The position numbers and the translations under genes are program-made. Below, in pieces: positions 1-53,783 of a stretch of DNA of 64,000 nt. Origin of the DNA: Cyanophora paradoxa CCMP329 (taxonomy: Eukaryota; Plantae; Glaucophyta); assembly GCA_004431415.1 (NCBI GenBank), contig QPMI01000398.1, positions 1 through 64,000 of the forward strand, given 5' to 3'. Each line of letters opens with the position of its first letter. Position 1 is the stretch's first letter. A model generated the notes under the pieces. It made no database searches. It saw only the letters and a program-made list of their open reading frames with translations, and was not told where the DNA came from.

Positions 1-1194
1 TGACCGAACGTCAGCTCTCAAATATTCGCTCCAGGCTTCCTTGTGAATCTCAACGTCATCCCAAGCTCTTATCTTTCGGTGGTCAAAATCCCCTTTCAAG
101 GTGGTGCACCCGTAGTCCTTCCCAGCCTGCCGCAGTGAGCCCTGTATGTGCAAGCAGGGATCGAAGCTTTTAAACTCTCCCCCGGCCAGCGTCTTCCACT
201 CCATGCTCTTGATCTTTCCGGATGAGCGCATCACCTTGACCTGGCAGTCTGGGCGGTTCTGGACAAGCCACTTATAGATAAATATCAAGTCGAAGCCGCT
301 GCCATTGAAGAATACTAGAGTCGACTTTTCTTTCCAGTTGTCAAGCCAGAGCATAAACTGTTCCAGAGTTTCGGGGCCGCAGAACGATTTCGTTTCCGTG
401 ATCTCTCCTTTGCTAATTATGTCCATATCGACTGCGTACGGAACGTGGGTCGTGCGGTTGGGTGCAAACGTTTCAAAGTCTGCCGCTATGACTGAGTTTA
501 GGGCCGTAAACTCTTCCTCGGGCTGAGCGAGGGCATTCTGCGTGCGCATGCGCTCCTGTCGTGTAATGTTGATGGCCATCCAGCGTACGAGTGACGGGAA
601 TCCTCGGATGCAGTGGTTGCTCTCAATCCGAGCATTGGTCTCCTGTATTTCTTTCTGAAGCTGGTCGCGTCGCGTCTTGAGGGTGTTGCGATGTTCCCGC
701 GTCTCCTCCGACCGATTCTCCATCTTCCGTCCCTTCTCCTTGATATGTTCAGTGAGCGCTTCGCTTGCCTCGCGAAGCTCCTCCTTGAGCTTGGCGAGCT
801 TGCGAATGTGCGCGTGCGTGAACTCGATCATGTCGTGGGTTGAGGTCTGGTACTGTAATGGGATCGCCTTGGTCGCCATGGTCGCCGCCGCGAATGCGAG
901 TTTCGAGCCGTCGTCCGCGTCAGAGTAGCGCTTCGTGTCCGAGTCGATTGCGCGTTTGGCGTCGTCTCGCCAGGCGACGACACCTTGCGGTGTGAGCGGG
1001 TTGCCTGGACTGGTGATGTAGATGCCTCCGCCGCAGTCGATGAGGGTGGGCGCCTCCGTATGGGAGAGCGAGTTGAGGGCGTCGCGTTCTGCCGAAGCGT
1101 TGGCGTTGACCGCCGCGACGTCCGTGAGCTCGTGGAGGATGGAGTTGGTGGCCGCGCGCCGGCGTGGCGCGTCGCCGAAGTTCGTGGGATCCAT
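1..1194 (-). CDS. Chimeric ORF, open to the window edge: ~225 aa retroelement Gag N-terminus fused in frame to the 3'-5' exonuclease domain of a protein-primed family B DNA polymerase
   Basis: Manual translation from the ATG at 1194 has no stop down to base 1: MDPTNFG...QNALAQP|EEEFTALNSVIAADFET (ExoI)...LVFFNGSGFDLIFIYKWL (ExoII)...FDPCLHIQGSL...KGDFDH...EYLRADV (ExoIII). The junction at ~520 coincides with a drop in GC. Confidence 0.8.
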   Translation of the reverse strand, partial: MDPTNFGDAPRRRAATNSILHELTDVAAVNANASAERDALNSLSHTEAPTLIDCGGGIYITSPGNPLTPQGVVAWRDDAKRAIDSDTKRYSDADDGSKLAFAAATMATKAIPLQYQTSTHDMIEFTHAHIRKLAKLKEELREASEALTEHIKEKGRKMENRSEETREHRNTLKTRRDQLQKEIQETNARIESNHCIRGFPSLVRWMAINITRQERMRTQNALAQPEEEFTALNSVIAADFETFAPNRTTHVPYAVDMDIISKGEITETKSFCGPETLEQFMLWLDNWKEKSTLVFFNGSGFDLIFIYKWLVQNRPDCQVKVMRSSGKIKSMEWKTLAGGEFKSFDPCLHIQGSLRQAGKDYGCTTLKGDFDHRKIRAWDDVEIHKEAWSEYLRADVRS

Positions 1195-1453
1195 TGTGTC
1201 TGCTCGCGGCAGAGACGAGGGAGGCCGACGAGGGAGGGAGGCGGGGGCGATGTAGATCTCCGGCCGAGCTTCCACGCGGGAAGGCCAGCCAAGGTCTGAT
1301 GTCTCCGGGGCTCGCGGCGTCCGCAGCGCGGCGGAGGCGAGGGGGGGAACCGGGGAGAGGGCGGGGGTGGGGCGAGGGGGTCGGTTCGAGGCGCCGCACG
1401 TAGATCACCGGCCGGGCTTCCGCGCGGGAAGGCCGGCTGCGATCTGAGGTCTC
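520..1453. repeat. 934-bp near-identical direct repeat of 28448..29381 (gag 5' region and upstream repeats)
   Basis: Constant offset of 27928. About 4 substitutions seen; the two inside the coding part are synonymous. Confidence 0.95.
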
Positions 1454-1950: not shown

Positions 1951-2826
1951 TCACGGGGACGAGCGTGCCGTAGATTTCTGTCGGGTCGTCGGGGTCGCCG
2001 CTGCGGGTACCGAGTGTCCGTGAGCCCCATTGGGCAGGTCGGTGGTGAGGTCCGATCCGTCCGCCGCTCCCGGCTCATAGATCGGATGCGTACGAGCCAT
2101 GCGCGACTCGAAGTCGGCAACAACGTTAGTCGAGCCCGGTCTGTACTCAATTGTGTAGTTGAAGCCTTGCATGACGAGCGCCGCGCGTGAAAGCGCTTTG
2201 TTCGCCAGGAGTTCTTGCGACTTCAACCACTGAAGCGGCGAGTGGTCCGTGCGGATGGTAAACGGGTGCCCGCAGTCGAAGTAGTGTCGCCACGTCTTGA
2301 CGGCCCACATGACTGCAATGCACTCGCCTTCCGTCGGGGAGCTGTACCGCGCCTCCGTGGCCGTCAGGGTTCGGCTGATGAAGGCGATTGGTCGTTCTCG
2401 ACCGTCAGAGTCTGTTTGCATGAGTGCCGCGCCCATTGCTCGCAGGCTCCAATCCGTGTAGATGATGAACGGTTTGGAAAAGTCAGGGAGCATGAGCACG
2501 ATGTCGTCGCACATGACCTTCTTGAGGTCTGCGAGTGCTTCGCTGGCTTCTGGCGTCCACTGGAGCTGCGTCGTGTCCGCTAGCTTCGCTGCGTGAATCA
2601 GGTCACGGAGCGGAAGCTCGCGTCGCGTGTAGTTGCGGATGAAGCGCCTGTAGAAACCCGTCATGCCGAGGAAGCTGCGCATGTGCTCGACGGTCTGCAG
2701 TTCTCGTTCGGTAATCTTGGAGATCACCTCCACCTTCTTCGTGTCCATGCGAACGCCCTGAGCGCTGACGCGGTGGCCAAGAAGGTCGATCTCGCGGACC
2801 ATGAAGTGACACTTGCTTGGTTTCAA
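1951..2826 (-). pseudogene. Truncated pol: RT thumb/connection plus Ty3/gypsy RNase H
   Basis: (LARGNLK)LKPSKCHF...LLGH, RSFLGMTGFYRRFI, PDFSKPFIIYTDWS, EGECIAVMWAV, RTDHSPL, EYRPGSTNVVAD. No YxDD upstream: the frame hits a stop near 2873 inside gag sequence. Confidence 0.92.
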
Positions 2827-3421
2827 TTTGAGATTGCCCCGAGCGAGCGCCGGCGGGAGGGGTGAAGCGGGTCAAGGCAGCAGGGACCGTAGGAGTCGAG
2901 GCAGCGTCGACGCGCGACGGTGTCAGAGTTCCTGAGGTCCCGACGGTCGAGGGCGCGCTCGTAGAGGAGGCGGGAGCGGAGGCCTGTGTCGTAGTAATCG
3001 CGGTCGTGCCCGTGGTGGCATCGTCGTGTGACGGCACGCGGGAGGCAGCGACGGGGATGGTGGGGACGGCGGCTGCAGCTTCGACGCGCGAGGGTGCAGC
3101 CGTCGGGAGGGTCGGGGTTGCGGCGTCGGCGTGCGACGGCGCGGAGGTAGTCGAGGAGGGGACGAGACCCGATTGCAAGGCCGAGATTGCGGCGTCGACG
3201 TGCGACGGCGCGGTCGGGGCGTCGGGCATGGGCTCGTCATCGAGGGGCACGGAGGGCGGCGGGGGGCAGGTCGTGTAGGAGATGCCCATCGTCGCCGGCG
3301 GGCGCGAGGCGCGGGTCGCGGCCTGGAAGGGGACGCCCTGGGGCTGCGTCGGGGCGCCGCCGCGGCCGCCGCCACCGCCACCGCCTCGTCCACCACCGTA
3401 GCCACTGCCGAAGCCGCCGCG
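2603..3421 (-). pseudogene. C-terminal part of the interrupted gag ORF (RGG tail plus Ala/Pro/Thr-rich PSHxDAA repeats)
   Basis: Removing the element and one TSD joins ...PSGGRG (right flank) to GFGSGYGGGRGG... (left flank) in frame. Confidence 0.85.
3416..3421. repeat. Left target-site duplication GCCGCG
   Basis: Identical hexamer at 26948..26953, directly outside both TIRs. Confidence 0.95.
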
Positions 3422-3967
3422 AAAAAATGAGAGAGAGCCCACCGCGGTGGCCCACCCCTCTCCACCACCCCCATCCCCTCACCCCCTCGCTTACTGCACC
3501 AGCCCTAGCGTCCACCCCACTCTCCCTTCAACCCCGCTCTCTCGTTACGTCTACCCCGCTCTCTTGTTACGTCTGCCGGCCTTTTCCCTAGGTCAAAGCC
3601 TAGCAATAGCTCATGTCTATTCAAGACAGTGCTATCAAGTAGAAGAGACGAAGAGGAGCGCGGCCCCCTTGAGCGCGGTCTGCAGAGCAACGGGGCAGAA
3701 TAGGCTAGACGATATTAATGTGTACAGAGAAGCTAACTGAGGAAACACGTTCAGCGCTAGCTATGCGATAATGATGTGTACAGCGAAGCTAACTGAGGAA
3801 ACGGGTTCAGCACTAGCTGGGCGTGTTTACAGTCTGGAGGGAACGTGAGGCACAGCGCGGGCGAGCTCTATCTAGGCGCTTGGCGCAGCGTCGCTGCTTG
3901 TCTGCGACCAGGGGCGACCTCCCAAGCGGTACGGGCCCCCAGAGCGGTCTGGTGCGGCCTCGGGAGA
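3422..3967 (+). repeat. Left terminal inverted repeat (546 bp)
   Basis: Starts AAAAAATGAGAGAGAGCCCACCGCGGTGG. It is the reverse complement of 26401..26947; the one difference seen is a homopolymer indel near 3665. Confidence 0.96.
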
Positions 3968-4124: not shown

Positions 4125-5101
4125 CTATCAAGCAAGCTCTTCTCTGTACGTAACGACATAGCTATCGCTCTTGCTGCAGGGATTCTGTCCAACGGTCCCT
4201 GCATGTGCTTCGCGTTCTGCCGCTGACTCGCAGCTCTGCCTAACGCCGACTCGCGGTAGCGCTTCTTCTTTGCTCGCTCTTTCTAGATCTCGGATGCAGA
4301 GCAGCAGTGCTGAGATTGCGCGGCGCGCGCGCTGAGCATGCGGAAGCTTCCAGGATCCAGAAGCTGCGCGGGACCGGCGCGAGACACACTCTATAGAACT
4401 GAGAAGCTTCCTAAACTTCCAGGTCGTCACATCCGATCGAAGCTTCCAGACTCGTCCTTTCGGTGCAAGCTAAAGCCCCAGACCAAGCCGTCAAGCTCAA
4501 GCCGGCTAGAGTGAACGTCTTTGGGCGAAACGTTCAAAACCTCGGAACTGCTGCGAGGCCCGGCGCTCAAAGCTCAATTTATCGTTTTTGCGCATCGCAC
4601 ACAGTATCCAAACGCTTTGGCCGGCGCTCGGTGCGCTTCTGTGCAGAGATCAAGCTCGGCTAGCCACCCTCAAGCTGAGCCGGCTAGGGAGAACGTCTCA
4701 GGTCAAAAGCTCGGAACTGCTGCGGCGCCCAGCGCTGGAGACTTGTTTTGTCATTCTTCTGTATCATAGTTAGTATGCGTACGCTTTGGCCGGCGCCCGG
4801 TGCGCTTCTGTGCTGAGGTCAAGCCGCCATACATTTTAGTCGTCAAACCCGACGATTAAAGATCTCATCAACGCTGCGGCGCCTGAACGCGCTTGCTGCG
4901 GATTTCGTAATTATAGATCATGAAACTATGGCATACACAGCGGCTGGGTCCAAATCGATCTCTGTCATGAGAAACCATGGTAATCTGGGTCGAAACGTTC
5001 AGTCCCGTAAGATTGGCTACTGTAGTGTAATAAGCACTGCTATAAATCGATTTTAAATGCATTTGCGTATGCTTTTTAATCACCGCCGCAAGAGCGCCAA
5101 C
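4125..5101. repeat. Diverged sub-terminal inverted repeat (partner ~24878..25735)
   Basis: Collinear inverted blocks, e.g. GTCAAGCCGCCATACATTTTAGTCGTCAAACCCGACGATTAA and TTTAAATGCATTTGCGTATGCTTTT, separated by diverged spacers. Confidence 0.88.
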
Positions 5102-7640: not shown

Positions 7641-10600
7641 CTATACTGTGACATTTTTAATTTGGTCTATTTGACTTTGGAGATTTTCACATGTTTGTGT
7701 TAAATCTTTGCATTTCTTAGATAACTCTTTAACGGCTTCAATGAGAACTGGAATTAAACCTGTGTATTCAAGAGATAGGTAGCCATCGTCTTTTTTAACA
7801 TTAACTACCTCTGGTATTACCTTTTGAACATCTTGTGCAATTAAACCTAATTTTGTTCCGTCTTTTTCGCTTCCAATTCGTTTAAAACTTACTCCTTCTA
7901 ATCTCTCGATTGCTGAAAGAGCGCCGGTTATCTTTTTAATATCTGTTTTGTATCTTATGTCACTTCCTTGTGTTAAATACCCTCCTATCCACATCCACCC
8001 TCCATGATACATGTAACAAATATCAGTATCTTGTTCATTTCGGAATACAAGGGGAATATCTCCCCTTCCTTTCAGGTATGTAGAGGTGTTATTTCCAAAA
8101 TGGATACGATTATATCCATCACTGGAATTAAACCAAGTCCCCACAGTTCCTGTTAAGATATTTGGTTTGCTATAAACGTTATTCCAATGAATATAGCCGG
8201 TGTGACCGCCATAACTATGTCCAACCCAAATTTTCACGAAACTTATACCCATAATATGAATTCTTCCAATCTTTGGATATATCCGAATTCTTAAAAACCG
8301 ATTCCCAAGGAAGATAGGGACATTATTTAAGCCGCTGTGGTTGTTATCTGCTGATCCTGCATATGGATGGTAGTTATTGACAGTTGTTATGAAAATCGCG
8401 TTACCTTGTCTATTAATGCCCCAAATTTCGAAAAGTCGTGTGTTGCTCCAAGGTAAATGTGTTAAATATGCGGTGCCTGAATGCATTCCACTGGGTATAT
8501 TGTATTCAATCCAAGCGGTAGAAGTTTGGTCATCAGTTTCATTATTATGTGCATAACCACCATAACTATAATACGGATCCCATGAGGTGCCTGTCCCAAA
8601 TGTCCAACTTCCGGAATAGTTATATGGATCATTTCCCGCAACAGCGCCATCCTCTTCATAAAACTTTGGAATTGAATAACCATGTATTTGTAAATTTGTT
8701 GTAGCATTAATAGTGGGTGCTGTAATGGTATTATTCACCCAAAAGTTACCATTGTTATAAGACTTTAAAATTGCTCCATCTGCTGAGTTTCTGAATTCAA
8801 TTGACACACCATCACCATTTGGTCTCCCTCGTATATATGTGCAATCGCCACTACCAAACCAAATTCGCTCGACTGCATCTGTTGATTTTAACCATGTGTT
8901 AGTTGTCCATTTTGCTGTTGCTGGAAGGTCTGCGGCTGAGTAAAATGATGGTTTACTAAATATATTATCCCAACTTATCAAACCATTCGCGGGCGCTGTT
9001 CTACCTACTTCTTTTGTCCATCCAAGCATTCCGATATGAATCCGTCCTTTTTTTGCGAAAATTCCAATATGTGTGAAATTTCCACAAAATACGGATGTCC
9101 ATAATAAACTCGAATGCCACGCTGTGTCGGCTGTGTTTTGAACATTTTGATACGTATTAACTCTCATTATATAATTCCATCGACCATTGCGATATCCATA
9201 AGTATCGAAATATCGCCCATTCGTCCAACATAAATATTGAATGTGACATGTTTTCATTCCTGCTGGAACTTGACACTGCATATATCCACTGCCGCTTTCA
9301 TCGTCTGTTTGGTTGCAATAAAAACCCTCTACTGGGTTATCTGTTGTGGGTTTCCATCCTGTTGTCCAAGCTCCGGCTGGGAATGCTACACCTGTGCTAT
9401 TCCAACCACTCACCACATCAAACTCTGTATATTTGCCTACATCTGGTTTGAAAGCAATATTATCATAATGAACTAAACCAACATCATTATCTGTTGCCCT
9501 CTGTCTGCTCCAACCGAAAACCCCTGTAAGATGAATGCGACCTATTCGCCCTTGAACATAAATATACTTGTAAAACTCGCAATTAATTGATACAAACAAG
9601 ATAGTATTATTTGTCCCATCATGATTTACTGACTGTATTCCTTGATAATCGTTTACACGTTTTAAGAAATGCTGATTGTTATTGAGAGTCTGACCATAGA
9701 TATCAAAATATCTGCCATTATACCAAGGCATATGCTGAATATAAAATGATTTCATACCTGTGGGGACAGTCCACCTCATAAAACAACCGCTACAATCTTC
9801 ATCATTTTGTGGTGTTGTATAACATCCTGTTTGTCCTGTTCTTGGTGACCAATTCAAATTCCAATTATTTGCGCTTCTATCTGTCGAAACAGTATCTAAT
9901 TGGTCGAATTCGTAACCTTTCGGTATTGTGGTTCCGCCAATTTGTAAAGTGGTAGCGTTAACGGTTCCGGTGACGGTTCCACCTGTAAGAGGTAAATAAT
10001 TCGCAAGAGCCGTAGTTAATTCTGCATCCGTTGTGTAACTGCTTAAATCCGCGGTCGTAAGATATCCTTTATTGGTTAGGTAATCATCTGTGACCACACC
10101 TGAAAGGGTTGTATTGTGTAAGTTTTTCGCCGCCATTCTCTGATTGACTTCTAAGGCGCCACCTGATAACGTTTTAATCCACGCCATCTCACATCTTCCG
10201 TGATCATCTGTGGGTCGTCCGGCAAGAGGGACATAATTGAATTTTGAACGGGTAAATATAAGTTTGGGCCTTGATGCATCAGTAGCGCTTACATCTGTTA
10301 CGTTTATCTGTATGGCGGCGTCTTTATCATCATATGCTGCTGGATCAGATGGAAGAGCTGGTAAAGTCGATGTAAGAGTTATTTCGTTATCGTAATAACT
10401 TGTTAAATAAATACCTGGTTGAGTGTCCATTAAACCAAAATTTCCGCCTGCTGCAACTACCTGTGTTCTTGTAGGTGGACGAATATATAATTCACCTTCC
10501 ATAGTTGTGCCTGCATCTATTCCTTTTCGATTCACGTAATATGCACTTAATAGTAATCTTTCTGCGATGTTAATGTTTTGGTAGAGACTCACACCATTTG

Positions 10601-12959
10601 TCCCATCATTCATAACATTTCCTGCTGATGCAAAAGTAGGCTGTTGATCTATTTCGTCCCAATCGTGCCTGTGTGTCGATGGTGTAAACGTCAGAGGGAC
10701 GTTATCAATTTCTCCCCAATCGTGCCTATGGGCGCTGGGTGGAAACGTTAAAGGCACATTATCGAGATCGCCCCAATCGTGACGATGTAAAGCTGGTGGA
10801 AACGTTAAAGGCACATTATCGAGATCTCCCCAATCGTGCCTGTGTAAATCTGGTGGAAATGTTAAAGGTACGTTATCGAGATCTCCCCAATCGTGCCTGT
10901 GTAAATCTGGTGGAAATGATAAAGGTACGTTATCAAGATCTCCCCAATCGTGCCTGTGTAAATCTGGTATAAATGTTAAAGGTACGTTATCAAGATCTCC
11001 CCAATCGTGCCTATGGTCTTCTGGTGGGAATGTTTCGGGTTGATCTGGGATATTCTCCCATCTAAAATAATCTTCTGTTACCACTCTTGAAATATTTTCG
11101 TTGTGAATGTTTTTCGCTGCTGCTCTTTGATTGATTTCTAAAAGACCCTCAGGAACCCCACCATTATAATTTGTTTTTATCCATGCTACCTCACACTGTT
11201 TATAATCGTCACGATTTCCTAAAAGGGTTTCTGCTGCGAGTTGTTCACGACTGAATATAAGTTTTGGTCTTGATCCGTCCAAATCGCTAACATTTGTTAC
11301 ATTAATTTGTATAGTGGCGTTATGGTTTGCATAATTGACTGGATCAGATGGGAGAGGTGGCAAACCCATAGTCATCGGGATATCATCAGCGTAATAACTG
11401 GTTAGATAGATTCCTGGTTTATTCTCTTTAACTTCTACACCTCCACCTGCTGCGATCAATTCAATTCTTCTGGGAGGTCTAATATATATTTCGCCTTCCA
11501 TTGTGGTGCCTGCATCAATTCCTTTTCGATTCAGGTAATATTCACTTAAAAGTAATCTTTGTTCGATGTTAATATTTTGGTAGAGACTCACACCATTTGT
11601 CCCATCAGTTAAAACATTACCTGTTGATGCAAAGGTAGGCTGTAAATCGATTTCGTCCCAATTATGCCTATGGTCTTCTGGTGGAAACTGCTCTGGTATT
11701 CCATCGATATCGCCCCAATCATGCCTATGGTCTGTGGGTGGAAATCTATCTGGTTTATTATCAATCTCGTCCCAATCATGTCTGTGTTCCTCCGGCGGAA
11801 AAGTCTCAGGTTTGTTCGTAATTGATTCCCAGTCTACGGTGAACTCCAAGGGGAAGCAAATAGGATCAAAGCCGTCTGGAAGCAGCTGCTCATGGGGAAT
11901 CACAGGCTGCTCGTACTCGAGTTCTTGAACATCTAAGCCATCAGGAAGTAACTGCTCTTCAGGCTCTGTGTATATTTCGAGTGGGAAAACTTCAATATCA
12001 GGCGGCAGGTATTCCTCATGTGGATGCTTATAGGGTTCTATCACTGGACGATTCCTGACAGCCTCCCATGATATAATATTTTGACCAAATGGGATTGTCT
12101 CATCGGCAACTCGCTCTCGACCTGGTCCATCCGGCGTTGGCGGCTTTGGTAGCCCTGGAAGAGGTGGTATAGGTGGTATAGGGACAATAGGTCCGAAGTA
12201 GTAGTTGAAAATGTTTATTATCTCCGGTTCAGTGATGACCTTTTTTCCATCTTGGTAAATCGACGTGCCGTGAATATTTCGCCACTGCCTGGTGCGGAGC
12301 CCAAGATCGTAGCTGTCATGCAACGCCGGGAGCAGGTGCCTATCAGCTTCCATCAGGATCGAGCCAAAGGTGCATCCAGGAATATCTAACCTGGTGGCTG
12401 GCTCGGTATCGATTTGATTTACATCAAAACCGTATAAAATATTTGCTTCTCGTGCAGCTGTAAAACGTAAATCCCAGGGAAACGGCTGGATTTGTGATGC
12501 TAGCACTGATATTCCTGCATCTTTGCCAAGGAGAATTCGCCCTGTAATGTGAGCCGCAGTCTTGTTTGTGACAGCATTGGATTCATCAATTAGGCGTAGA
12601 GCTGATGTGTGGACCCCTCTATCATTTTGGAGCCTAAAGATTAATCTACCAGAATCATACTTGGAAACAGTGCCTGAGGAGGCAATTCGCAGGTGCCGCG
12701 GCAACGCCCTGGATCCAATTATTTCAGCAACATAGTTCTCAGCTGGACCCAGACAAAATCTCTGTGCGATATTTGGGGCACCGACGTGTGAATTGCGCAG
12801 AATTAACGCAGCTGGACGATTAAAAGCGGTCTGGTGTATATCCTTGTCAGAATTGTAGTCAGCCAAAATGCTCCCGAATACACGGATATTTATAAGCCGA
12901 TCATCCACGGTATCTGGAGCTTTACGAAGTGGCACTGGCTTCTTCAAGATGTAGGACAT
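7641..12959 (-). CDS. Phage tail-fibre-like protein with HxH repeats and a C-terminal peptidase S74 intramolecular chaperone (1772 aa)
   Basis: C-terminal SDIRYK...GLIAQDVQKVIPEVV...Y.GLIPVLIEAVKEL plus coiled coil; ten HRH(D/N)W repeats; YLPLTGGTVTG fibre motif; one duplicated and one triplicated internal domain. Confidence 0.88.
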   Translation of the reverse strand: MSYILKKPVPLRKAPDTVDDRLINIRVFGSILADYNSDKDIHQTAFNRPAALILRNSHVGAPNIAQRFCLGPAENYVAEIIGSRALPRHLRIASSGTVSKYDSGRLIFRLQNDRGVHTSALRLIDESNAVTNKTAAHITGRILLGKDAGISVLASQIQPFPWDLRFTAAREANILYGFDVNQIDTEPATRLDIPGCTFGSILMEADRHLLPALHDSYDLGLRTRQWRNIHGTSIYQDGKKVITEPEIINIFNYYFGPIVPIPPIPPLPGLPKPPTPDGPGRERVADETIPFGQNIISWEAVRNRPVIEPYKHPHEEYLPPDIEVFPLEIYTEPEEQLLPDGLDVQELEYEQPVIPHEQLLPDGFDPICFPLEFTVDWESITNKPETFPPEEHRHDWDEIDNKPDRFPPTDHRHDWGDIDGIPEQFPPEDHRHNWDEIDLQPTFASTGNVLTDGTNGVSLYQNINIEQRLLLSEYYLNRKGIDAGTTMEGEIYIRPPRRIELIAAGGGVEVKENKPGIYLTSYYADDIPMTMGLPPLPSDPVNYANHNATIQINVTNVSDLDGSRPKLIFSREQLAAETLLGNRDDYKQCEVAWIKTNYNGGVPEGLLEINQRAAAKNIHNENISRVVTEDYFRWENIPDQPETFPPEDHRHDWGDLDNVPLTFIPDLHRHDWGDLDNVPLSFPPDLHRHDWGDLDNVPLTFPPDLHRHDWGDLDNVPLTFPPALHRHDWGDLDNVPLTFPPSAHRHDWGEIDNVPLTFTPSTHRHDWDEIDQQPTFASAGNVMNDGTNGVSLYQNINIAERLLLSAYYVNRKGIDAGTTMEGELYIRPPTRTQVVAAGGNFGLMDTQPGIYLTSYYDNEITLTSTLPALPSDPAAYDDKDAAIQINVTDVSATDASRPKLIFTRSKFNYVPLAGRPTDDHGRCEMAWIKTLSGGALEVNQRMAAKNLHNTTLSGVVTDDYLTNKGYLTTADLSSYTTDAELTTALANYLPLTGGTVTGTVNATTLQIGGTTIPKGYEFDQLDTVSTDRSANNWNLNWSPRTGQTGCYTTPQNDEDCSGCFMRWTVPTGMKSFYIQHMPWYNGRYFDIYGQTLNNNQHFLKRVNDYQGIQSVNHDGTNNTILFVSINCEFYKYIYVQGRIGRIHLTGVFGWSRQRATDNDVGLVHYDNIAFKPDVGKYTEFDVVSGWNSTGVAFPAGAWTTGWKPTTDNPVEGFYCNQTDDESGSGYMQCQVPAGMKTCHIQYLCWTNGRYFDTYGYRNGRWNYIMRVNTYQNVQNTADTAWHSSLLWTSVFCGNFTHIGIFAKKGRIHIGMLGWTKEVGRTAPANGLISWDNIFSKPSFYSAADLPATAKWTTNTWLKSTDAVERIWFGSGDCTYIRGRPNGDGVSIEFRNSADGAILKSYNNGNFWVNNTITAPTINATTNLQIHGYSIPKFYEEDGAVAGNDPYNYSGSWTFGTGTSWDPYYSYGGYAHNNETDDQTSTAWIEYNIPSGMHSGTAYLTHLPWSNTRLFEIWGINRQGNAIFITTVNNYHPYAGSADNNHSGLNNVPIFLGNRFLRIRIYPKIGRIHIMGISFVKIWVGHSYGGHTGYIHWNNVYSKPNILTGTVGTWFNSSDGYNRIHFGNNTSTYLKGRGDIPLVFRNEQDTDICYMYHGGWMWIGGYLTQGSDIRYKTDIKKITGALSAIERLEGVSFKRIGSEKDGTKLGLIAQDVQKVIPEVVNVKKDDGYLSLEYTGLIPVLIEAVKELSKKCKDLTQTCENLQSQIDQIKNVTV
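10650..11030 (-). repeat. 57-bp coding tandem repeat (7 x HRHDWGDLDNVPLTFPPxx)
   Basis: Directly visible; three more related units lie at ~11650-11800. Confidence 0.95.
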
Positions 12960-12983
12960 TTTTATATAGGCCTCCTTTTAAAA

Positions 12984-14467
12984 ATGAAGGTGATTCTCTC
13001 GTTATCAGGTGGAGGTGCTCGTGGCATAATTATAACCAGAATTCTGCAACGGATTGAGGCAATCACTGGCAAAGCGATTCCACAACTGTTTGACTTCGTT
13101 GCAGGAACGAGTACAGGGGCAATAATAGCGGCCGGTTTGGCTATCCCATCAACTCCAGGCTCTGTTCTCGCTTACCGATATTCTGCAGGCGATATCTTGA
13201 GTCTCTACCAGACAAACCTGCCAGTAATATTTGCGAATCCTAGATCGCTAACGAGCCTGCTTGCAGGAAGCCGTTATGATGCAAACCCTCTGGAGTCAGT
13301 GCTACTAGACGTTGCCCAGGACTACACAATTGCAGAATCAACAAAAGACATATTAATCACAGCATTTGATACAGTTCGGATGCAGCCCGTAGTTTTCACT
13401 AAGGATGGGCCATACTCAAGCACCCTGATTCGTGATGCAGTTAGAGCATCTTCTGCAGCACCTACATTCTTTCCACCGAAGGTGCTAGGAGACAAGAACC
13501 TTGTTGATGGGGCCATCGCCTGTTTAAATAACCCCTCGGTTGCAGCACTCAGCCATGCCAGCAAAATTTACGATGCAGAAGATCCAATTGTTCTTGTGAG
13601 CATCAGCTGCGGAGAGGTTCAAGCTAGCGAGCAATTGACTGCAGGTTTTTCAAATGCGGAGACGTCAGGCTGGGGCGCCCTGGGCTGGATCCTATCCCTC
13701 TCAGGCAGCCCAATTATTTCTATGCTAATGGCTGGGAGCGAGCTGGAATCCCACTTTCAAATGCAGGAGCTGCTTCCAGTTGATGCAGATAGGAATCTAA
13801 CTAGGTACTGGCGCTTAAGTGTTCCGCTGCCAGCTGCAGTCATGAGCAAGCTTGATGATGCATCCCCTCTAATATTTCTTATTTGATTTCCACAACTGAC
13901 TTATGGCTGAAACAAACTGAAATAAATGCTAAAATAAATGCACTCTGCAGCTTTCTATTGGCGAACTACGACCTAGTGAACGATGAGAGACTTATCATAT
14001 CGTCTACCTTAACAGTTGAGCCTCCATTTGATGTCAACTGGTTTATAATTCCAGATGCGAATATCACAAGCAACGACTTCGAGGAATTGCACCCACCTTC
14101 TCACGTGCGACCCAACTCAACAGGGTTTCAGGGTGGCACTTTACCTAATCCCTGGATCAAAGTCGAGTTTCCCAAGCCTTTTGAGCTACATCAAATCATT
14201 ATGTATGGGCCAGCCTTTGCTGCCGGAGTCCTATTTAATTTCAGCATTCTGACCAACTTAGGATATTTACGAGACGGGTCACTATTTGAGAATACGGTCC
14301 TAGCAAATGTGCTTGCTGCAAACCCATCTATGACTGGCTTTGATCTAATGCATAGTGACTCGCATTTGATCACCCCACAGGTTTATAACTATGTGCAAAT
14401 TATAACAAACGAATTTATAAATGTGAATGCGTTCCGGCTTGATTTCCGGGGACGTTACCTAAACTAA
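12984..14467 (+). CDS. Patatin-like phospholipase with a C-terminal extension (1-bp frameshift near 13865)
   Basis: SLSGGGARG oxyanion loop, GTSTG nucleophile, ASSAAPTFFPP, LVDGA. Adding one C to the C4 run gives LDDASPSNISYLISTT and joins ORF 13883..14467. Confidence 0.9.
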
Positions 14468-16407: not shown

Positions 16408-17795
16408 ATGGATGTTACTCAAAATTTGCAGCGGCTCGGCCTCAAGGAGCTCCTGACAACTCCGCAGGAAGCTAAGGACTTTTTCATGAACAATGAGCTT
16501 ATGTTAGGTCTAACCAGCCAAACAAAGCCTGTGCGTGTTGTTGTCAACCCAAGCAATGACTATGGAGACTGCTTCGGAAAGAGGGTTACTTATTTCCTGC
16601 CCCGGTACAATTTCCTTCAGGGGCTCGAACTGCAGTTCACCCTTCCAGAGTTGACTGCATTTACTGGTGACACTGACCTGGTTCGCACTGGTTATTTGCG
16701 ATCGGTTGGTGCTCTTGTAAAGCGAATCGAAATCAAATATGCTTCCTACAGCTACATTGTCCCGAGGACTGGCTTGTTCACAGCGCTCTGATTTTCAATG
16801 ATGATGCTCAGCTCAAAAAGAAGTACCGATCCGGTGGCTGGCTCCATGGAACACCACCTCAGGGGAGCAATCGCGCTGGAGGTATTTTCAGTGTAAAGAT
16901 CCCCTGCCCCTGGGAGGGCTCAGTGCTTCCAATTGGTGCGCTATCGGGCGAGGTGTCTGTGGAGGTTTGGTTCCGTGACCGTGCCCAGGGCTTCGTTGAG
17001 ACCAGCTATGGTGGTAGGTTTGTAGCAGAATATGCCGCAAACGGTGATGCCTCTAAAGATGATGGCCTTGGTAGTGTTGGAGCCGCTGCTGCTTCCCCTG
17101 CAAACATCGGCCAGAATATAACTCCCAATGTTCTCAGTGTCACCCCTGCCAATCCGGAGCTTTCGAATCCAAAGATTATTGCTCATTGCATCAACGTTGA
17201 TGAGGCCACTTTTGCCCAGGTGATTGAGAAAGTCAAAACGTCTGGAATCGCAATTCCCGCTACCGATGTCGGCTGGGTTGATGCTGATTCAATTACTTAT
17301 GCTGGTGCGGGAGCGCCCACCCGGATTAATCTGTCTCAAATCAGTGGACTTTGCTACGGCCTGTTCGTTAGCATTCGCAAGCAGCCAAACATGAACCAAA
17401 CTGATGGAAAACACAGTGTCCTCAAAACCGAGGCTAATGCTCGCGATATCACTATTTCCTGCGAATTGAATGGCCAGAGACTTTATTCAAATGAGCCCGT
17501 TCCTCTCCTGCAAGGTGCCGAACTCATCGCTGATGTCTTCAAGTGCTCCAATCTCGATGCTCCTTTGAATCGATATGTTCTCACTGGTTTGCCATTTTGC
17601 ATTAGTGGGGATAAATCGATCCGAAATGCTGCTCAAACTGGTTTCGTAGATCTCACCAACAGCAGCAGCTGCTTCCTGAATATCATGAATCCTGCCGCTT
17701 ACGATGCAAACAACAAGATTTACGTCCAAATTCGCGCTCTCCTGCACACTGTCCTAATTGTTGATGCTGCGGGTCTTCGTAAGGTGAACCTCTAG
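16408..17795 (+). CDS. Putative double-jelly-roll major capsid protein (~460 aa; 1-bp frameshift near 16762)
   Basis: FGKRVTYFLPRYNFLQGLELQFTLPEL, LVKRIEI, then in the alternative frame KIPCPW..SVLPIGAL..EV.VEV.F and GFVDLTN. It lies between the pentons and the ATPase. Confidence 0.75.
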
Positions 17796-20688: not shown

Positions 20689-23600
20689 TAGTTATTCGAA
20701 AGATTTTTATAGTGACCTATCGCCCTGGTGTGAACACCATCCTCGCACAGGAATCGCTTGGTATCAAGCGGGTGTAGGGCTTGCTTTGATGTCCGCTGTA
20801 GCCAGATCCGGTGCTGTTTCGATCTGAAGCCGAGAATTCCATCTACGTTGCATGATATGCCCCCAAAGATGCAGTCGTAGTATCGCTCTCGTGTCAGCGA
20901 GCTGCTGAACGTCTTGTTAACGCCCTTGCACTTGTGCACTTGTGATTCCTCTGTGCTCATATAGTACGATTTCGGTCGGTTCGCGATCCACTCAAGCATT
21001 TGTCTGCCGCCACACTCGTCCTTGAACAGCCCGGGAACCTTGCCCATCGATCGTAGTCGCTGCACTTCGTCTTCTGACATCCCTTCAAAGAACGGGTGTC
21101 TCGTAGGGTATTCACTAACATCTAGCTCGTTTTTGATTTTGCGAAGGTCCTCGTATAAATTTTCGGTCTCAATCTCAATTATGAGACTGTCTGTATCTGT
21201 ACCAAGAAGCTTTACTCGCTCGCCCCAAAGCGCTTTCAGCACCTGGTAGTAAAACCGATACATATGTAGCTTTGATAGATCAAGGATTGTGAACCCACAG
21301 TAGATCGGTTTGTTGAGTTTGTATTCGCTCTTTCGCTTATTTACATACACCAAGTTTTCGTCATATATAGCGACCTGTCTCAAGCGGTTCGGCTCTGTGT
21401 TGATTTTCGCTAGTCGTTCTCCTGTTGTCACAAGCTCTGAATTGCAATGCTTGCGTACGTTTTCCATCGTTTTCCCAAACACCGCATTATTTAGTAGCTT
21501 ATAAAGATCTTTTTCATACGGGAATTCTGCCTGTTTTCGCTTCAGAGTGTTCAAATCGATATAGCTCTCTAGCCATGCACTTTGCTCGAACGAAAGCACT
21601 CTGTGTATTCTAGAAACAACCATTCCCATCGACACATAAAACTGTAGCACTCGTGCATCAACAACATAGTTCTTCTTTGGCAACAGGTTTGGAACCAGCT
21701 TTGGCGTTCTCTCGATCCCGCTTAGTTTTTCACGCTCAATAGTTTCTCGCTGCGCCTCTGATAGGTGCTCTTTTGCAATGCACATTCGCTCGGGAGCTAG
21801 TGGATAATCACTAAAATAATCATGCAGCTCTTCTGGACAATGCATGTCAACCTCCAGAGAAAAACCCCTTGAACCATGAACATCAAGGTCTGTTATATAC
21901 AGTTTAGGATCTGTAATACCTCTGACGTCCTCCCATTTGAAGTCCCCTGTCGGTAGTTTTTGTTTCATAGAAAACCCATAAAGGTTGTTCGCATCGAGGT
22001 ACAGTAACCAGCCCTGCTTTTTTCTGTGACCCACGATGTACTTATCAATCCAGGCATTATTAGCTCGAGCATATCTTTTTGATATCATAGAGATTCCTCC
22101 CGGATCCCTTTCTCAATAAAGCGGTGCATATCTTCTTGTCCTTCGTAAAATAGCTCCAGTTGCTGACCAGTGTGCTTCAAAGCCGCCTGCCACGAGAAAC
22201 CTGGAATGCTCATAAAGTAGCTTGGGTCCAGCTTGTACGTCTCCATACACGTGTCACGGTAGTTTTCAAATATGTCTCCTAGAAGAGCTATGTCTGTCTT
22301 CATGTACTCCAATGTATAGTCAGCCATTGTCCTGCAACCAAGCTCACGCCAGACCGATTGAGCGTGGGCATAATCATCCCGAGAGCACTTCGACTGCTTT
22401 AGCTCGTTGTAAAATTGGCGGCGCCCTGGTAGTGATGTCTCTGCAAGACGATCCCAGCCAGTAATGTACTTGTATGGATAGACACCCTTGCGCGTCATTA
22501 GTTTGAACCGTGTCTCGCTCTCATGTAGTGCACGTGTGATATTCTTTTTCACATCAGGTACTGCAGCCGCAAGGCTATCGAGACTACCCTGCAGGTGCTG
22601 AGCAGAGTCACGGAAAACGTAAATGCCGTATGTGAACTGTGACATACGCTCGCTGTTCTGAAACACCTGGTCAAACTTCGTCGACAGTAACTCACGAGGA
22701 CGTAGTTTGCGCTCAAGCCGCTTCCTTGCATTTTTCTCATGATCTGCGCTCAGCTCACGCCCTGCGTATTTGGCTTGAAACTGGCGCTCAACCTCAGCTC
22801 TGAATGCATTTTCTGCGACTTTCCGCCGGTTGTAGCCTGCTGCCAAAGCCCTCACTAATAGGTGAAAGTCAAATCCTCGGCCATTGTGAAAGAATATTGG
22901 GACGGCGGCAGCTTTTGCTCGTCGCCTGTTGCAGGCATTGCAGGCCGCTCCAAGATACTGCCCGGAGTCGTGGCAGTGATCTCGATTTTTATCTTTGACT
23001 TCTTTGAACTCGCTTCCACACATATAGCACGTTTCTGCTGCTTGAAAGGAGCGCTCTTGTTCCTGCGTAATCTGCATCGTCGCTTTCTCCTCCAAGATTC
23101 CCTTAAACTGCGGCTCTTTTTCATCTAGCCAAGTAACAAATGCCTCTGCTGACTCCTCAGTTTGCGAGCCCATATGCGAGAACCAAAACTGCTCCTGTTG
23201 CCTCGTCTCTGAATTTTCAATGCTTTCTACAGTTTCATTCGTTCCTTGATTTTGTCCCTTGTTTAGGATAACTAAGCATCCGATCGAAGATATTGCGTGA
23301 ACGCCTAGCTGCTTCGTCTTTGCTGGACTCTCGGTCTGCAAAACAGGTAGAGTCATTGTTTCCGAGTCAGCATATCCAACAAGCCTTTGCCGAATCGTCT
23401 TCTCGAAGCTGTTGAATTTTATAAAGTGCTCGCCCTTTTTCGGAAGCACGTCCCTGGCGTGCTCATCTCGATCAAGGCACCGGTCGTATTTAAGATGATT
23501 CTGAAAGGCCTCGTCTGAGCCAAAGCCGCACTGGCAGGCCAAGCAATAGTGCTTCGCATTCGACCCATGCTTTCCAAACAGTCGCGATATGTTCTTTATC

Positions 23601-24730
23601 CACAAATAATGTCCCACATCATTCCCGTCGCCTGCTGGCACGTACAGTATCGGTATAGCATCCGTTGCTGCGCTAATGTGGATCGGAACGATGTCTTGCT
23701 TGTCTAGCGCAGTCGTGTAGACGCAGAGCTTAACATTATTCGCACACTCAAATTTGCTGAACATTTTCGAATCGAGTGGCGTCGGATACGTGAGCATTGT
23801 ACAATCTAGCGATGCCTCATGCTGCCGATAGCTTCCTGCATGCCTCGAATCCACCCCTGGGGCCAGCGGATTGCGCGCTGCGAGGACAGCATATTTAAAG
23901 CACTCGTTGTTTGGTGCATTGATATTGATCAAGGCCTGCTTGAGTGCAAGCCAGCTCGGAAGTACAAACCCGCGTCCGCGGCCGCCCATACGTCTGAAGT
24001 ATCTAATCACGGTAAAGCGTAGCTTAATCCACGTCTCGAAGGCGGAAGAATCACGGCTCTTTTCCTGCGCAATAGTATCTAGCTCTTCCAGCTGTGAGCG
24101 GATCGTCTCAACAACGTCTGAGCCTGGGAGTATGCGGTAAAATTTCCTGTGCTCAATCACTACTGCAAGCGCTGAGTCTTCGTTAGGCTTGCGATAGAGT
24201 CCGACTCCTGAGACCTGCAAAGCTATGCCCATTCGATCCTGACTTGCTAATTCTTGCTGCACGCTCGCAAACGCCACTGCGCCTGCTCTGAACCTCGCAT
24301 TATTTTCGAGCTGCGCCTGCATCGACGTGACTCGGCCTGTTCCACGTGAGGGCCGGTACTCCCAGTCAGCGTATGTCCCGTTCAGCGCTGTTCGTGTCGT
24401 CACTGTGCCGTCCTCCTCTGCAATTTCAGTTTCGCTGAACTCGCTCACGCTCGGATCGGGCAGCTCTGAAAATCCTGCTACAATCCCCTCAGCAATAGCA
24501 AGCTCTAGCCGTGCAGCTGCAACTGGTCTCGGCGGCCTCGGTACTGTTGACAGCTCGTTCAAAAGTGATGCGTATTTTTGTAGTGTCGGCAGTCGCGTGC
24601 GTGAGCCACTCGCACTGATGCGCTGCAGTTTGTTTCTGAATTGCCCATGAATAAACCTGCGATTGTACAAAACCTCGGCCTGGCCTGCTATCTGCTCTTT
24701 GAGCCGCGCGATCTCAAACCGTCGCTCCAT
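20688..24730 (-). CDS. Protein-primed DNA polymerase B, Maverick type, with an endonuclease-VII-like Zn insertion (1-bp frameshift near 22100)
   Basis: YADSET, CYMC...RDHCH..G.YLGAAC..CN, FHNGRGFDFH, RKGVYPY, Y..TD, YLDANNLYG, KLLNNAVFGK, TDTDS. One extra G restores KGIRGGISMIS. Confidence 0.95.
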
Positions 24731-25695
24731 TTAACAATAGCACTCCAAAAGATTTTCAGAGAAAGCGCGCAACCAACCGCTCGTTCCTATAGGGCGGTGC
24801 GATTCCTTTATAACATGTCACTGAGGCACATTGTGTGGTAGATCGCAGCTGGTGCTGCTTGGAAAACTGATAGCTGAGTTGGCGCTCTTGCCGCAGCGAT
24901 GTAAAAGCATACGCAAATGCATTTAAATTCGAATTCTAGTAGCGCTTATAACACTACAGTAAGCAGTCTTAGAAGGCATGACGTTTTGACCCCGTAAACC
25001 ACGGTTCCTCGCGACTGAGATCGAATTGGACCAAGCCGCTAAGTATGCTACAGTTTTATGATCTATAAGTACGAAATCCGCAGCGATCGTGTTCAGGCGC
25101 AGCAGCGTTGCTGAGATTCTTAATCGTCGGGTTTGACGACTAAAATGTATGGCGGCTTGACCTCATCACAGAAGCGCACAGGGCGCCGGCCAAAGCGTAA
25201 GCATGCTTAGTATGATGCGAAAGAACGATAAAACAAGCCTCCAGCGCTGGGCGCCGCAGCAGTTCCGAGCTTTTGAACGTTTTGCCCCGAGACGTTCACC
25301 CTAGCCGGCGTGAGCTTGACGGCTTGGTCTCCGGCTCGGTCTCCGGGATCCGGCTTGGATCCGACTCGGTCTCCGGGATCCGGCTTGGATCCGGCTTGAG
25401 CTTGGCGGACGTGACGCGCGCCGAAAGGACGAGTCTGGAAGCTTCCCGGACGTGACGGCCTGGAAGTTTAGGAAGCTTCTCCGTTCTATAAAGTGTGTCT
25501 CGCGCCGGCCCCGCGCATTCGAAATCTCACTCTCTCAACACCACGCTGGATCCTAAGCAGCCGCGACAGTTCAAGACTCCCGAGAGGAAGCTAGAACAGA
25601 ATCGGCGCTACAAGAAGTCGGAGTTGGGCAAAGCTGCGAGACAGCGGGAGAACGCGAAGCACAGGGCTAGAACCGCTGCCGCAAAAGCGATAGCT

Positions 25696-26385
25696 ATGTC
25701 GTTGCGTACAGATCTAGAGAAGAGCTTGCTTGCAGAGGCGACCTACGAGCACGGACGCATGGCGACGGACGCGCAGGATCCGGACGCGCCTTCAGCCCTC
25801 GGGAAGCGGGCGCGCGAGGCGGACAATGTCGATGCTCTCCGCAAGGAGCTCGCGGATATCAAAGCAAAGCTCGCTAAACAGGAGCAGCGCAATGATTGTG
25901 ACCGCATTGATGCTGAAATAAGGCAGGCGATTGCAGCTGCTCGTGATGGCTTCAACTCGCAGCACCTAGACTTTCTCTTCAACCTACGCCGTAATTTGAT
26001 GGTACGCCACCGACCGCCTGGCAGTTTAACGCTATCAAATGCCAGCGACACCGCCAGGCAACACGCGAGTCCGCGGGGTTCGCGACGAACGCGAAGATCT
26101 GGACCATGTACAACAAACACTGGACAGAGCTCCTTAAGCTCGTGCGTACCACTTGTTACATGGCTTTCAGTTATGTTCAGCGGTCCATAACCTGCGCAGC
26201 ATCGACTCTACGAGGAAGCCGACACGGATCCGAAGGCCAATGCGGAGGCCGAGGCGGAGGCAGAGGCCGAGGCAGAGGCCGAGGCGGAGGCCGAGGCAGA
26301 GGCCGAGGCGGAGGCCGAGGCAGAGGCCGAGGCGGAGGCCGAGGCGGAGGCCGAGGCGGAGGCCGAAATGGAGGCCGATACGTAG
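25696..26385 (+). CDS. Sub-terminal viral gene with two predicted spliceosomal introns (26002-26057, 26142-26199); coiled coil plus (EA)n acidic tail
   Basis: Removing GTACG..CCAG and GTGCG..GCGCAG gives the open frame NLM|ATRESAG...ELLKL|HRLYEEADTDPKANAEAEA...EMEADT*. TATAAA near 25487. The start codon is uncertain. Confidence 0.62.
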
Positions 26386-26400: not shown

Positions 26401-26947
26401 TCTCCCGAGGCCGCACCAGACCGCTCTGGGGGCCCGTACCGCTTGGGAGGTCGCCCCTGGTCGCAGACAAGCAGCGACGCTGCGCCAAGCGCCTAGATAG
26501 AGCTCGCCCGCGCTGTGCCTCACGTTCCCTCCAGACTGTAAACACGCCCAGCTAGTGCTGAACCCGTTTCCTCAGTTAGCTTCGCTGTACACATCATTAT
26601 CGCATAGCTAGCGCTGAACGTGTTTCCTCAGTTAGCTTCTCTGTACACATTAATATCGTCTAGCCTATTCTGCCCCGTTGCTCTGCAGACCGCGCTCAAG
26701 GGGGGCCGCGCTCCTCTTCGTCTCTTCTACTTGATAGCACTGTCTTGAATAGACATGAGCTATTGCTAGGCTTTGACCTAGGGAAAAGGCCGGCAGACGT
26801 AACAAGAGAGCGGGGTAGACGTAACGAGAGAGCGGGGTTGAAGGGAGAGTGGGGTGGACGCTAGGGCTGGTGCAGTAAGCGAGGGGGTGAGGGGATGGGG
26901 GTGGTGGAGAGGGGTGGGCCACCGCGGTGGGCTCTCTCTCATTTTTT
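26401..26947 (-). repeat. Right terminal inverted repeat (547 bp)
   Basis: Ends ...GGGCTCTCTCTCATTTTTT, followed by the TSD GCCGCG. Confidence 0.96.
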
Positions 26948-29122
26948 GCCGCGACCGCCGCTGGGGCCGCCGCGACCACCTCCTGGAGCGCCGCCGCCTC
27001 GTCCGAAGCCGCCGCGTCCGCCCCCGCCGCGGCCTCCTGGTCCGCCGCCGTTGGGGTTAGGGCAGTCTCGCATGATGTGGCCCTCCTGTCCGCAGCGAAG
27101 ACACTTGTTGGCCCACTCGCAGTGTGCCGCCAAGTGTCCGAAGACCCCGCAAAGGTAGCAGGTTCGGGGCTGTTGAGTCCGTAGCGCGGCGGTCGGGACG
27201 CCCGTCGACGTCGGGGTGGAATTCGAAGGGGTCAAGCCGAGGCGTGCGTGGAGCTGAGCAACGACTGGGTCGGAGGTGGGCAGGTTGCACAGCTCTGACC
27301 GGTACCAGTGGGTTGTGCAGAGGAGGTAGTCGTCGCCAAAGTGCCAGCAGGCATCCTCCGGGAGGCCAGCCTTCACACAGCGTCCGCAGAGCCAACGTGT
27401 ACCGTTAGGTCGGATGGGCTTGTCGGGGCGTAGAATGTTGAGGCCAGCGAGGAGATCCGTCTTCGTCTGCAGGCGAGGCAGGTTGAAGTTATGGTCGGAG
27501 GGCCGCGTCTGGGGTCGGGTCGAGTTCGCGCTCGAGCCGGCGGGTGGCGGGGCCGTTGCCTGGTAGAGAGGGGCGGTCTGCGGGGCTGTCGCATTCTGGT
27601 AGACGTAAGCGATGTCGGCGTAATTGAACGGGTACTCGGTCTCGTCGTCGTCACCGTAAGCCGTCATGTCCGTCGTAGAGGACTCCGATTCCGTGCCCTG
27701 CGATTCATGGAGAAGGCGGGCCATCGAGATCTGGCCGAGCTGGAACTGAAGTACACGGTCCGAGGCAGCGTTTGCACGGAACATGTTGTCGTACTGTCCG
27801 CCGCAGCAGCCAGGGTGGTGCCGGTGCGTCGACGTCGACGATTGTGAGAGGCGGGACTGGGAGGAGAGCTTGGTGTGCTCGTGCTCGACGTCTTCTTCCT
27901 CGTCATGGTCATGAGCGCGCTGGTCGTGCGTGCGCGCGGCACGGGCGGCCAGCTGCTCGTCGGAGACAGAGGTCGAGGAGTCGAACGTTTCGCACGTGCG
28001 CGCGGCACGGGCGGTCGTCTTCTCGGCGGAGCGGGAAGAGAAGGAGGCTGAGGCGCGCGGGGGAACGGTCGCAGAGCGCCGTGAAACGTCTTTCCACGGG
28101 TAGCGACGAAGGTTCCATGGGATGTCGAGTAGAAAATTCTCCATCGCCTCGTTGCACACCTTGTGGTTATCGAGCTTGTCGTCCGGAGGCTGGTACCTCA
28201 TCGCCGTGTCCTTGAGCGCCGTGAGCGCCTTGCGGGCGTGTTTGTAGTTGTCCCGCTTGGACTGCTGATAGTCGCCGGTGGGGTAGTGGCCGCTGTCCAG
28301 CTCCTTGGCCTCGATCATCTGTTTGATGAGTTCGTACACTTCCATCGGGGTAGGATGGCCTTCCAGCAAGCAGATTGTGCCCGCTCCGACGTAACGAAGT
28401 ACCTTGGACACCATGCTGACCATTGTCGGAAGCGGGTGACCATTGTAGGGCTGAGCGAGGGCATTCTGCGTGCGCATGCGCTCCTGTCGTGTAATGTTGA
28501 TGGCCATCCAGCGTACGAGTGACGGGAATCCTCGGATGCAGTGGTTGCTCTCAATCCGAGCATTGGTCTCCTGTATTTCTTTCTGAAGCTGGTCGCGTCG
28601 CGTCTTGAGGGTGTTGCGATGTTCCCGCGTCTCCTCCGACCGATTCTCCATCTTCCGTCCCTTCTCCTTGATATGTTCAGTGAGCGCTTCGCTTGCCTCG
28701 CGAAGCTCCTCCTTGAGCTTGGCGAGCTTGCGAATGTGCGCGTGCGTGAACTCGATCATGTCATGGGTTGAGGTCTGGTACTGTAATGGGATCGCCTTGG
28801 TCGCCATGGTCGCCGCCGCGAATGCGAGTTTCGAGCCGTCGTCCGCGTCAGAGTAGCGCTTCGTGTCCGAGTCGATTGCGCGTTTGGCGTCGTCTCGCCA
28901 GGCGACGACACCTTGCGGTGTGAGCGGGTTGCCCGGACTGGTGATGTAGATGCCTCCGCCGCAGTCGATGAGGGTGGGCGCCTCCGTATGGGAGAGCGAG
29001 TTGAGGGCGTCGCGTTCTGCCGAAGCGTTGGCGTTGACCGCCGCGACGTCCGTGAGCTCGTGGAGGATGGAGTTGGTGGCCGCGCGCCGGCGTGGCGCGT
29101 CGCCGAAGTTCGTGGGATCCAT
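26948..29122 (-). pseudogene. Retrotransposon Gag-like ORF, 5' part, truncated by the virus insertion
   Basis: Two CCHC knuckles (CYLCGVFGHLAAHC, CLRCGQEGHIMRDC) and an RGG tail. The TIR supplies AAA AAA TGA as a premature stop. Confidence 0.88.
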
Positions 29123-29179
29123 TGTGTCTGCTCGCGGCAGAGACGAGGGACGCCGACGAGGGAGGGAGGCGGGGGCGAT

Positions 29180-31433: not shown

Positions 31434-31636
31434 CCGATGCACGGCAGAGGCCAGTCCAGGGTTTGTGGGAGTAAAAGTTGCAGCTAACTGAGCTAACTCA
31501 GCTAAGCAGCACTGGGGTACAGGCAAACTTGGAGGGAGTGGCGCTGAGGTGGACGCACGTTGGGTCAGCAAGAGACGTAGCTAGCTAGAGAGCGTGTCGG
31601 CGTCGCTTGCCGGCACGCGGGGAGCCCAGGCGCAGC

Positions 31637-34437
<2,801 letters not shown>

Positions 34438-35792: not shown

Positions 35793-35810
35793 TCATGATG
35801 CGCCCGCCGG

Positions 35811-50988: not shown

Positions 50989-53783
<2,795 letters not shown>

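Follow-up and report, generated by a model that had tools for sequence, protein, structure and literature searches.

In the acutely transforming retroviruses, gag-onc fusions place the Gag N-terminus in frame with a captured gene, with short homology at the join. In the protein-primed DNA polymerases (pPolB) of the Polinton type, the domain order has been described as TP-vOTU-Exo-Palm, the region before the exonuclease (Exo) holding the terminal protein, which primes replication, and a vOTU protease (in the part of bioRxiv 10.1101/2024.03.18.585575 used here). Natural replicase fusions appear in the available parts of PMC12721341, PMC13215967 and bioRxiv 2026.10.13.758929; examples are the SF1 helicase-pPolB of an Oxyrrhis Polinton-like virus (PLV; PMC12721341) and the Tlr1/transpoviron helicases (bioRxiv 2024.03.18.585575), in which a pPolB is naturally fused within one ORF. 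Moreover, retrotransposons nested with endogenous PLVs or virophages have been reported (excerpts of PMC10120064 and PMC12220804), Ty3/Gypsy elements being noted near virus insertions in the former. The accessible supplement of PMC10120064 gives 366 for Cyanophora paradoxa; if this is read as an MCP gene count, which is an interpretation of a column shown without its head, such virus neighbours would be common in this genome. No Gag-pPolB hybrid appeared among the papers listed by a full-text literature search, and the word 'gag' occurs 0 times in the retrieved text of PMC13215967.

The window analysed here, a stretch of 64,000 nucleotides from a Cyanophora paradoxa CCMP329 contig (QPMI01000398.1), carries an ORF of this hybrid kind at its left edge. 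Translation of window positions 1-1194 yielded 398 codons without a stop (1194→1, minus strand), in which codons 1-225 are a copy of the gag starting at 29122 and codons 226-398 are a pPolB exonuclease domain. An earlier note, made from the letters alone, had described an ORF running from a gag ATG at 1194 across about 520 without a stop, and the 398-residue open translation agrees with it; the note's other observations were upheld as well. The join is probably the scar of a single-copy deletion at a microhomology, connecting a second retrotransposon copy to a second integrated Polinton-like virus; the matching frame would then be due to chance, and the product is likely non-functional. On the minus strand the order is gag, virus, Gag tail, RT/RNase H remnant, the 1453/1457 junction, gag block, join and second polymerase, and the corresponding features are as follows.

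1-519, minus strand: pPolB exonuclease domain (ExoI-III) of a second virus-like family, its frame open at the window edge (PF03175).
520-524: GGGCT microhomology, common to native gag and native pPolB (contig ends).
520-1194, minus strand: gag codons 1-225, second copy, with predicted helical N-terminus, long coiled coil and start of the likely capsid region (identity to P0004).
1195-1453, minus strand: gag leader, 259 bp, part of 150-bp repeats (self-BLAST).
1454-1457: second rearrangement junction, between the retroelement 3' region and the duplicated gag block (identity to 29381 ends at 1453).
1954-2871, minus strand: C-terminal part of a Ty3/Gypsy-type RT plus RNase H remnant, protease and RT core missing (RT_RNaseH, E 3e-33).
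2822-3421, minus strand: Gag tail (C-terminal) of the first copy, separated from the 5' part by the virus (83% identity to P0005 residues 395-582).
3422-26947: first Polinton-like virus, lying within the first gag copy (TIRs and target duplication).
26942-29122, minus strand: unfused twin gag, 727 codons up to the virus insertion, with CCHC knuckle (its stretch 28448-29381 corresponds to the fused block).

Like the Polinton-type polymerases, the fused ORF has an Exo domain with intact ExoI-III; it differs in that its whole N-terminal region consists of 225 Gag residues, the window showing the Exo part only. With the helicase-pPolB fusions it shares the linkage of a pPolB part and a foreign domain within a single ORF, but those combine two replication domains of one virus lineage, whereas here the partner is a retroelement structural protein, the fusion is apparently single-copy and the parent family is unfused. 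As in the published nesting, Ty3/Gypsy elements and Polinton-like viruses are interleaved and genes are disrupted at the junctions; however, the cases in the excerpts of PMC10120064 and PMC12220804 are retroelements inserted into viruses, with no Gag-pPolB ORF among them, while here the virus lies inside a retroelement gag. In contrast to the gag-onc fusions, neither a flanking LTR pair nor a packaging context was seen, and there was no sign of spread.

The polymerase half was assigned by domain and motif. Residues 289-379 match PF03175 (DNA_pol_B_2) in Pfam above the cut-off (E 2e-7), and the ExoI D/E, ExoII N/D and ExoIII Y/D are invariant in a 13-sequence alignment of the fused ORF with 12 relatives, as expected from the earlier assignment of ExoI, ExoII and ExoIII to this ORF. 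All 173 polymerase codons are open, with intact catalytic residues. The other polymerase of the window (22085-24730) contains an Endonuclease_7 domain at 551-607 and has about 160 residues between ExoI and ExoII, against about 55 in the fused ORF; BLASTP between the two returned nothing significant (best E 0.059), so that the fused ORF's polymerase is a different one. Its lack of the other's endonuclease-VII insertion, previously noticed by eye, was thus upheld, as was its attribution to a second, different virus-like pPolB family, which has about 9 copies by contig depth. The exonuclease part has 318 relatives at E<=0.001, the best non-self match being about 40% identical, and the nearest are PF03175 polymerases of about 1,050-1,500 aa with an N-terminus of about 400 aa. 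Relative to the main family contig, the pPolB half shows six listed differences, one of which changes a residue (N286D). No close locus for the pPolB piece was found in viral or metagenome contigs, nor for gag in metagenome contigs, and no full-length polymerase of this second multi-copy family in the protein collections searched; the alignment query gave five distant viral-contig relatives of the pPolB at 30-34%. A distant polymerase relative lies on a 40-kb viral contig (L003, 7946-13201), in a 1,751-codon ORF whose Exo match is preceded by about 680 residues. Contigs at 80% likeness over 430-477 represent a second related pPolB, and others at 80% likeness over 537-624 (at high depth) and 559-630 represent two or more gag paralogues.

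The label 'Gag' is based on where the sequence stands, with a CCHC knuckle and a Ty3-like RT/RNase H downstream of it, together with lead-level Atlas matches, and not on Pfam, in which no Gag family matched the gag ORF. The context is of the Ty3/Gypsy (Metaviridae) type: the full gag ORF has the CCHC knuckle and precedes a Ty3-type RT/RNase H, whose remnant has Ty3 Gag-Pol as its best PDB match (E 3e-21). Atlas Retrotrans_gag clusters, taken as a lead only, scored 0.85-0.88 for gag 190-340 (0.80-0.88 overall) and put a capsid-like region across the cut. Nothing was found when the PDB was searched with the Gag sequence; Foldseek gave no match at E<=0.001 with a single-sequence model of Gag 55-345 that was too poor (pTM 0.21), and the model of the fusion (pTM 0.22) was likewise too poor for use. 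Low-confidence models placed a putative coiled-coil helix at about 113-191 of the gag part.

Self-BLAST aligned 520-1453 with 28448-29381 as a direct copy of 934 bp (99.57% identical) that ends at 519, the copies differing at four positions (835, 1006, 1223 and 1395). Fused codons 1-225 are 100% identical in protein to P0004 residues 1-225. The earlier observation that the two coding differences are synonymous was confirmed (H120 and P63), but two random changes would both be synonymous in 5.5-10% of cases, so this is weak evidence; moreover, the changes need not have arisen after the join, and two sites are uninformative on selection. A reading of the two blocks as an LTR pair was rejected, since they lack TG...CA ends and are bounded on both sides within coding or repeat sequence. 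The fused copy is accompanied upstream by only 259 bp of leader, and contigs depart at 1453 and 1457 into other sequence. In the leader of the unfused twin (29180-29864), tandem repeats of about 150 bp vary in unit number between contigs.

The first virus shows what an insertion in a gag of this family looks like. It looks complete, is inserted near the end of gag and is 23.5 kb long, with near-perfect TIRs of 547 bp (3422-3967 and 26401-26947) and a 6-bp target duplication, GCCGCG (3416-3421 and 26948-26953), and the paralogue P0005 bridges both of its sides. Its genes include a pPolB with the Endo VII insert, adjoining the right TIR, an A32 ATPase, a patatin, an S74 fibre, a likely MCP (by eye against Table S2 of PMC10120064) and an rve integrase recognised by eye only, without a Pfam match. 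The pPolB has the same orientation as gag, and its ExoI lies 3,573 bp from the terminus. Since this virus stands in a gag of the same family, with the pPolB so oriented and ExoI 3.6 kb from the end, a deletion of a few kb in such an arrangement would give the join described here. Around it, at least three rearrangement junctions fall within 3.4 kb; of the two coding-to-coding joins one is in frame, the Gag tail/RT hand-over near 2850 being out of frame.

Several other features of the window were recorded. Frame changes interrupt three genes of the first virus (pPolB at 22085-22112, likely MCP at 16677-16791, patatin at 13859-13886), which reflect either assembly indels or decay. The fibre-like ORF (7641-12977, minus strand, 1,778 codons) contains two blocks of 19-aa (57-bp) tandem repeats, with a Peptidase_S74 chaperone at its C-terminus, and diverged (73-84%) inverted sub-terminal repeats lie inside the virus beyond the TIRs (4129-5101 and 24878-25732). 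A direct duplication of 7.1 kb, 99% identical, contains a protein-kinase fragment (30646-37767 and 50003-57102); 42538-44199 and 46030-47715 are 89% identical; and another retroelement, likely non-LTR, occupies 59120-62773 on the minus strand, with RVT_1 (61127-62773) and RNase H (59123-59989) in separate frames. No tRNA genes were found in the window. That the retroelement is nested in the second virus, whose right half would then follow, was rejected: most of 29-64 kb has a GC content of 60-79% (54% in the lowest 1-kb bin), and the ORFs scanned there contained no viral family.

The join itself was located from contigs of six DNA runs (X1, of unrecorded kind, X2-X5 and X14). In all six, the pPolB contig matches up to 524 and then continues into its own sequence, while the match of the gag contigs begins at 520; in X1, X2, X15 and X17, where the loose end of such contigs is shown, they go on as native gag. 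The two partners thus overlap by 5 bp, and the junction is not a point but the overlap 520-524. By chance, an overlap of at least 5 bp is expected with a probability of 0.0050 by formula, or 0.0047 from 200,000 random position pairs. Past 524, the next 30 letters of the pPolB contig are open in the polymerase frame (by eye), as expected for its own N-terminus. The join lies 13 residues before the ExoI aspartate, within the linker that follows a zinc finger in the aligned relatives, and, according to low-confidence predictions, within a loop between Gag helices. This is cleaner than most random cuts: by rough hand arithmetic, a cut in frame within the N-terminal 400 of about 1,100 codons would occur in about 12% of cases, given a cut in the gene, and one within a linker of about 25 codons in less than 1%. 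The junction was picked out for its look in a genome with many such neighbours.

No contig bridged the join in any of the 8 runs, assembled contigs being ones that drop minor branches, and the 1453/1457 junction was likewise unbridged in the contig pieces shown. Nor did bin arithmetic leave X1 or X3 any depth in which a bridging piece could be hidden. Because Logan contigs represent simplified consensus paths (available part of bioRxiv 2024.07.30.605881), a branch of 55 nt with a depth about 9-fold below that of its neighbour could be missing from them. Over the six DNA runs, the depth of the gag 5' half was 1.57-1.94 times that of the native gag continuation, and pPolB had 8.5-10.0 times the depth of an inferred single copy; although contig depth is no copy number, these ratios suggest about 9 copies of the polymerase, two of the gag 5' half and one of the gag continuation. 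In X5, a depth of 118, roughly that of one copy, comes into the gag block from the right and has no listed exit on the left; depth places the exit of the second gag copy no more finely than left of about 550, which fits both models. DNA contigs of X1 (T at 1006, G at 1223) and X3 (G at 835, G at 1223) contain letters specific to the fused block, X1 being the best-matching run, which may not be independent of the window sequence.

The join is also present in two named gene models with consecutive gene numbers on two contigs, P0006 and P0154, which are likely the overlapping ends of one locus. Both, like P0005, are Cyanophora paradoxa models, and the named database models with the join come from this species, for which PMC6704402, in the part at hand, describes a PacBio/Canu assembly, AUGUSTUS models and likely haploidy. 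P0154 is 100% identical to the window over four segments and ends open at the window edge. The early end of P0006, at an apparent intron after KDYG, was rejected as a sign of a broken polymerase because P0154 stops there too, where the frame of the window is open. The gene and contig names were absent from the available supplements of PMC12220804 and PMC12344493. These indirect lines say that the join is real and single-copy. With regard to the unfused polymerase copies and further junction copies that the earlier note had proposed to look for, unfused forms of both partners dominate over the fused form in the contigs, and no other copy of the junction occurs among the 150 listed polymerase matches, in line with the single copy suggested by depth.

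What the join removes was estimated from the N-termini of relatives, 150 of the 318 matches being listed, of which 26 were dropped as partial and 124 kept as apparently full length. Upstream of the join position these have a median of 402 residues, with at least 300 in 89 of the 124 and at least two CxxC just upstream in 75 of the 124; two of the relatives kept gave negative offsets from a mis-picked domain. The native stretch of about 400 residues is therefore gone and 225 Gag residues stand in its place, in accordance with the earlier remark that placed the terminal protein N-terminal to Exo. Crude patterns detected neither a vOTU-like nor a CxxC motif in the fused Gag part. Among the 150 listed polymerase matches, gag 1-225 matches only P0006, and none of the 28 relatives scanned had a retroelement Pfam family. 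On the Gag side, codons 226 onward are removed, including the zinc knuckle, near the end of the 727-codon twin.

No LTR-like repeat common to the 30.3-30.6 kb region and the sequence upstream of the fused block was found by self-BLAST, nor was the LTR itself located by eye. In both of the probable-RNA runs, which are only guessed to be RNA and whose contigs keep the major allele, the unfused twin's letter stands at 3 of 3 listed diagnostic sites and the sequence continues into native gag at 520; 1-519 has no cover in either run and was not used as evidence. According to the accessible part of PMC12344493, the repeats and viral genes of Cyanophora paradoxa are for the most part methylated and silent. 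The suggestion of a chimeric replicase under the retroelement promoter is thus poorly supported, given the leader of 259 bp, the absence of an LTR copy in the block and the unfused alleles of the probable-RNA contigs.

Explanations other than a deletion were weighed against these results. Template switching, either by a reverse transcriptase jumping from retroelement RNA to pPolB mRNA, as in the retroviral capture of onc genes, or by a replication fork that made two switches, first to copy the 934-bp gag block and then into the virus, is unlikely, the two versions being taken together. The 5-bp microhomology, the 99.6% direct copy lying between two junctions and the internal deletions that the retroelement already has are all compatible with it; yet the block has no LTR copy in its vicinity, no clear microhomology could be made out by eye at the 1453/1457 junction, and the first virus offers a simple geometry for a plain deletion. 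A long-read assembly artefact joining two repeats at a contig end would account for the bridging contig missing from all 8 runs, with no spare depth in X1 or X3, for the other unbridged junction and for the position of the join 520 bp from the window edge, where P0154 also ends open. It is improbable in view of the identical join in two models on differently named contigs, of the block's private letters in the DNA contigs of X1 and X3, and of the depth in six of six DNA runs, which points to a second, truncated gag 5' half; the loss of a shallow 55-nt branch from Logan consensus paths could also explain the lack of bridging.

In a further explanation, an expressed retro/DNA-virus hybrid would have been selected, in which the terminal protein and vOTU of an intact pPolB have given way, at a clean domain boundary, to the N-terminal helices and coiled coil of Gag; such an oligomeric polymerase would either rely on sister viruses for priming in trans or be attached to retroelement particles. 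The in-frame cut near the Exo boundary, the intact catalytic Exo residues and the synonymous state of both gag differences (n=2) fit it, and replicases of these viruses do swap domains (accessible parts of PMC12721341 and bioRxiv 2026.10.13.758929). We regard it as very improbable, since the fusion is apparently single-copy, no further Gag-pPolB occurs among the 150 listed matches, the leader is short and probable-RNA contigs carry unfused alleles, the Gag part has no CxxC or vOTU-like motif, and repeats and viral genes are mostly methylated and silent (PMC12344493, in part). Of the two options originally offered, a chimeric replicase or a deletion junction in frame by chance, the latter is the better supported, by the microhomology, the apparently single copy and the dominance of unfused forms; the clean cut before ExoI, the open frame, the intact catalytic residues, the single residue change among the six listed differences from the main family contig and the lack of a bridging contig count against a deletion scar.

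If the join is such a scar, a Ty3/Gypsy copy would have adjoined, or been invaded by, a virus of the family with about 9 copies, and a break would have been repaired through the 5-bp overlap, with loss of the rest of gag, the viral terminus and the N-terminal part of the polymerase. The product would be without the terminal-protein/vOTU region needed for self-priming and without the C-terminal half of Gag, including the zinc knuckle, and probably without the retroelement promoter. The ORF is real and in frame, and most likely a piece of rearrangement debris of nested mobile elements. As a scar, it would be a tidy and recent instance of the material from which domains can be shuffled between retroelements and DNA viruses, and it would draw attention to a second pPolB virus family, present in multiple copies, in a glaucophyte. 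Were the ORF expressed and an intact polymerase to follow it, it would amount to a Gag-pPolB hybrid and would make it possible to test directly whether a pPolB works without its own terminal protein; a true hybrid of this kind would represent a snapshot of new replicase architectures arising in genomes packed with nested mobile elements.
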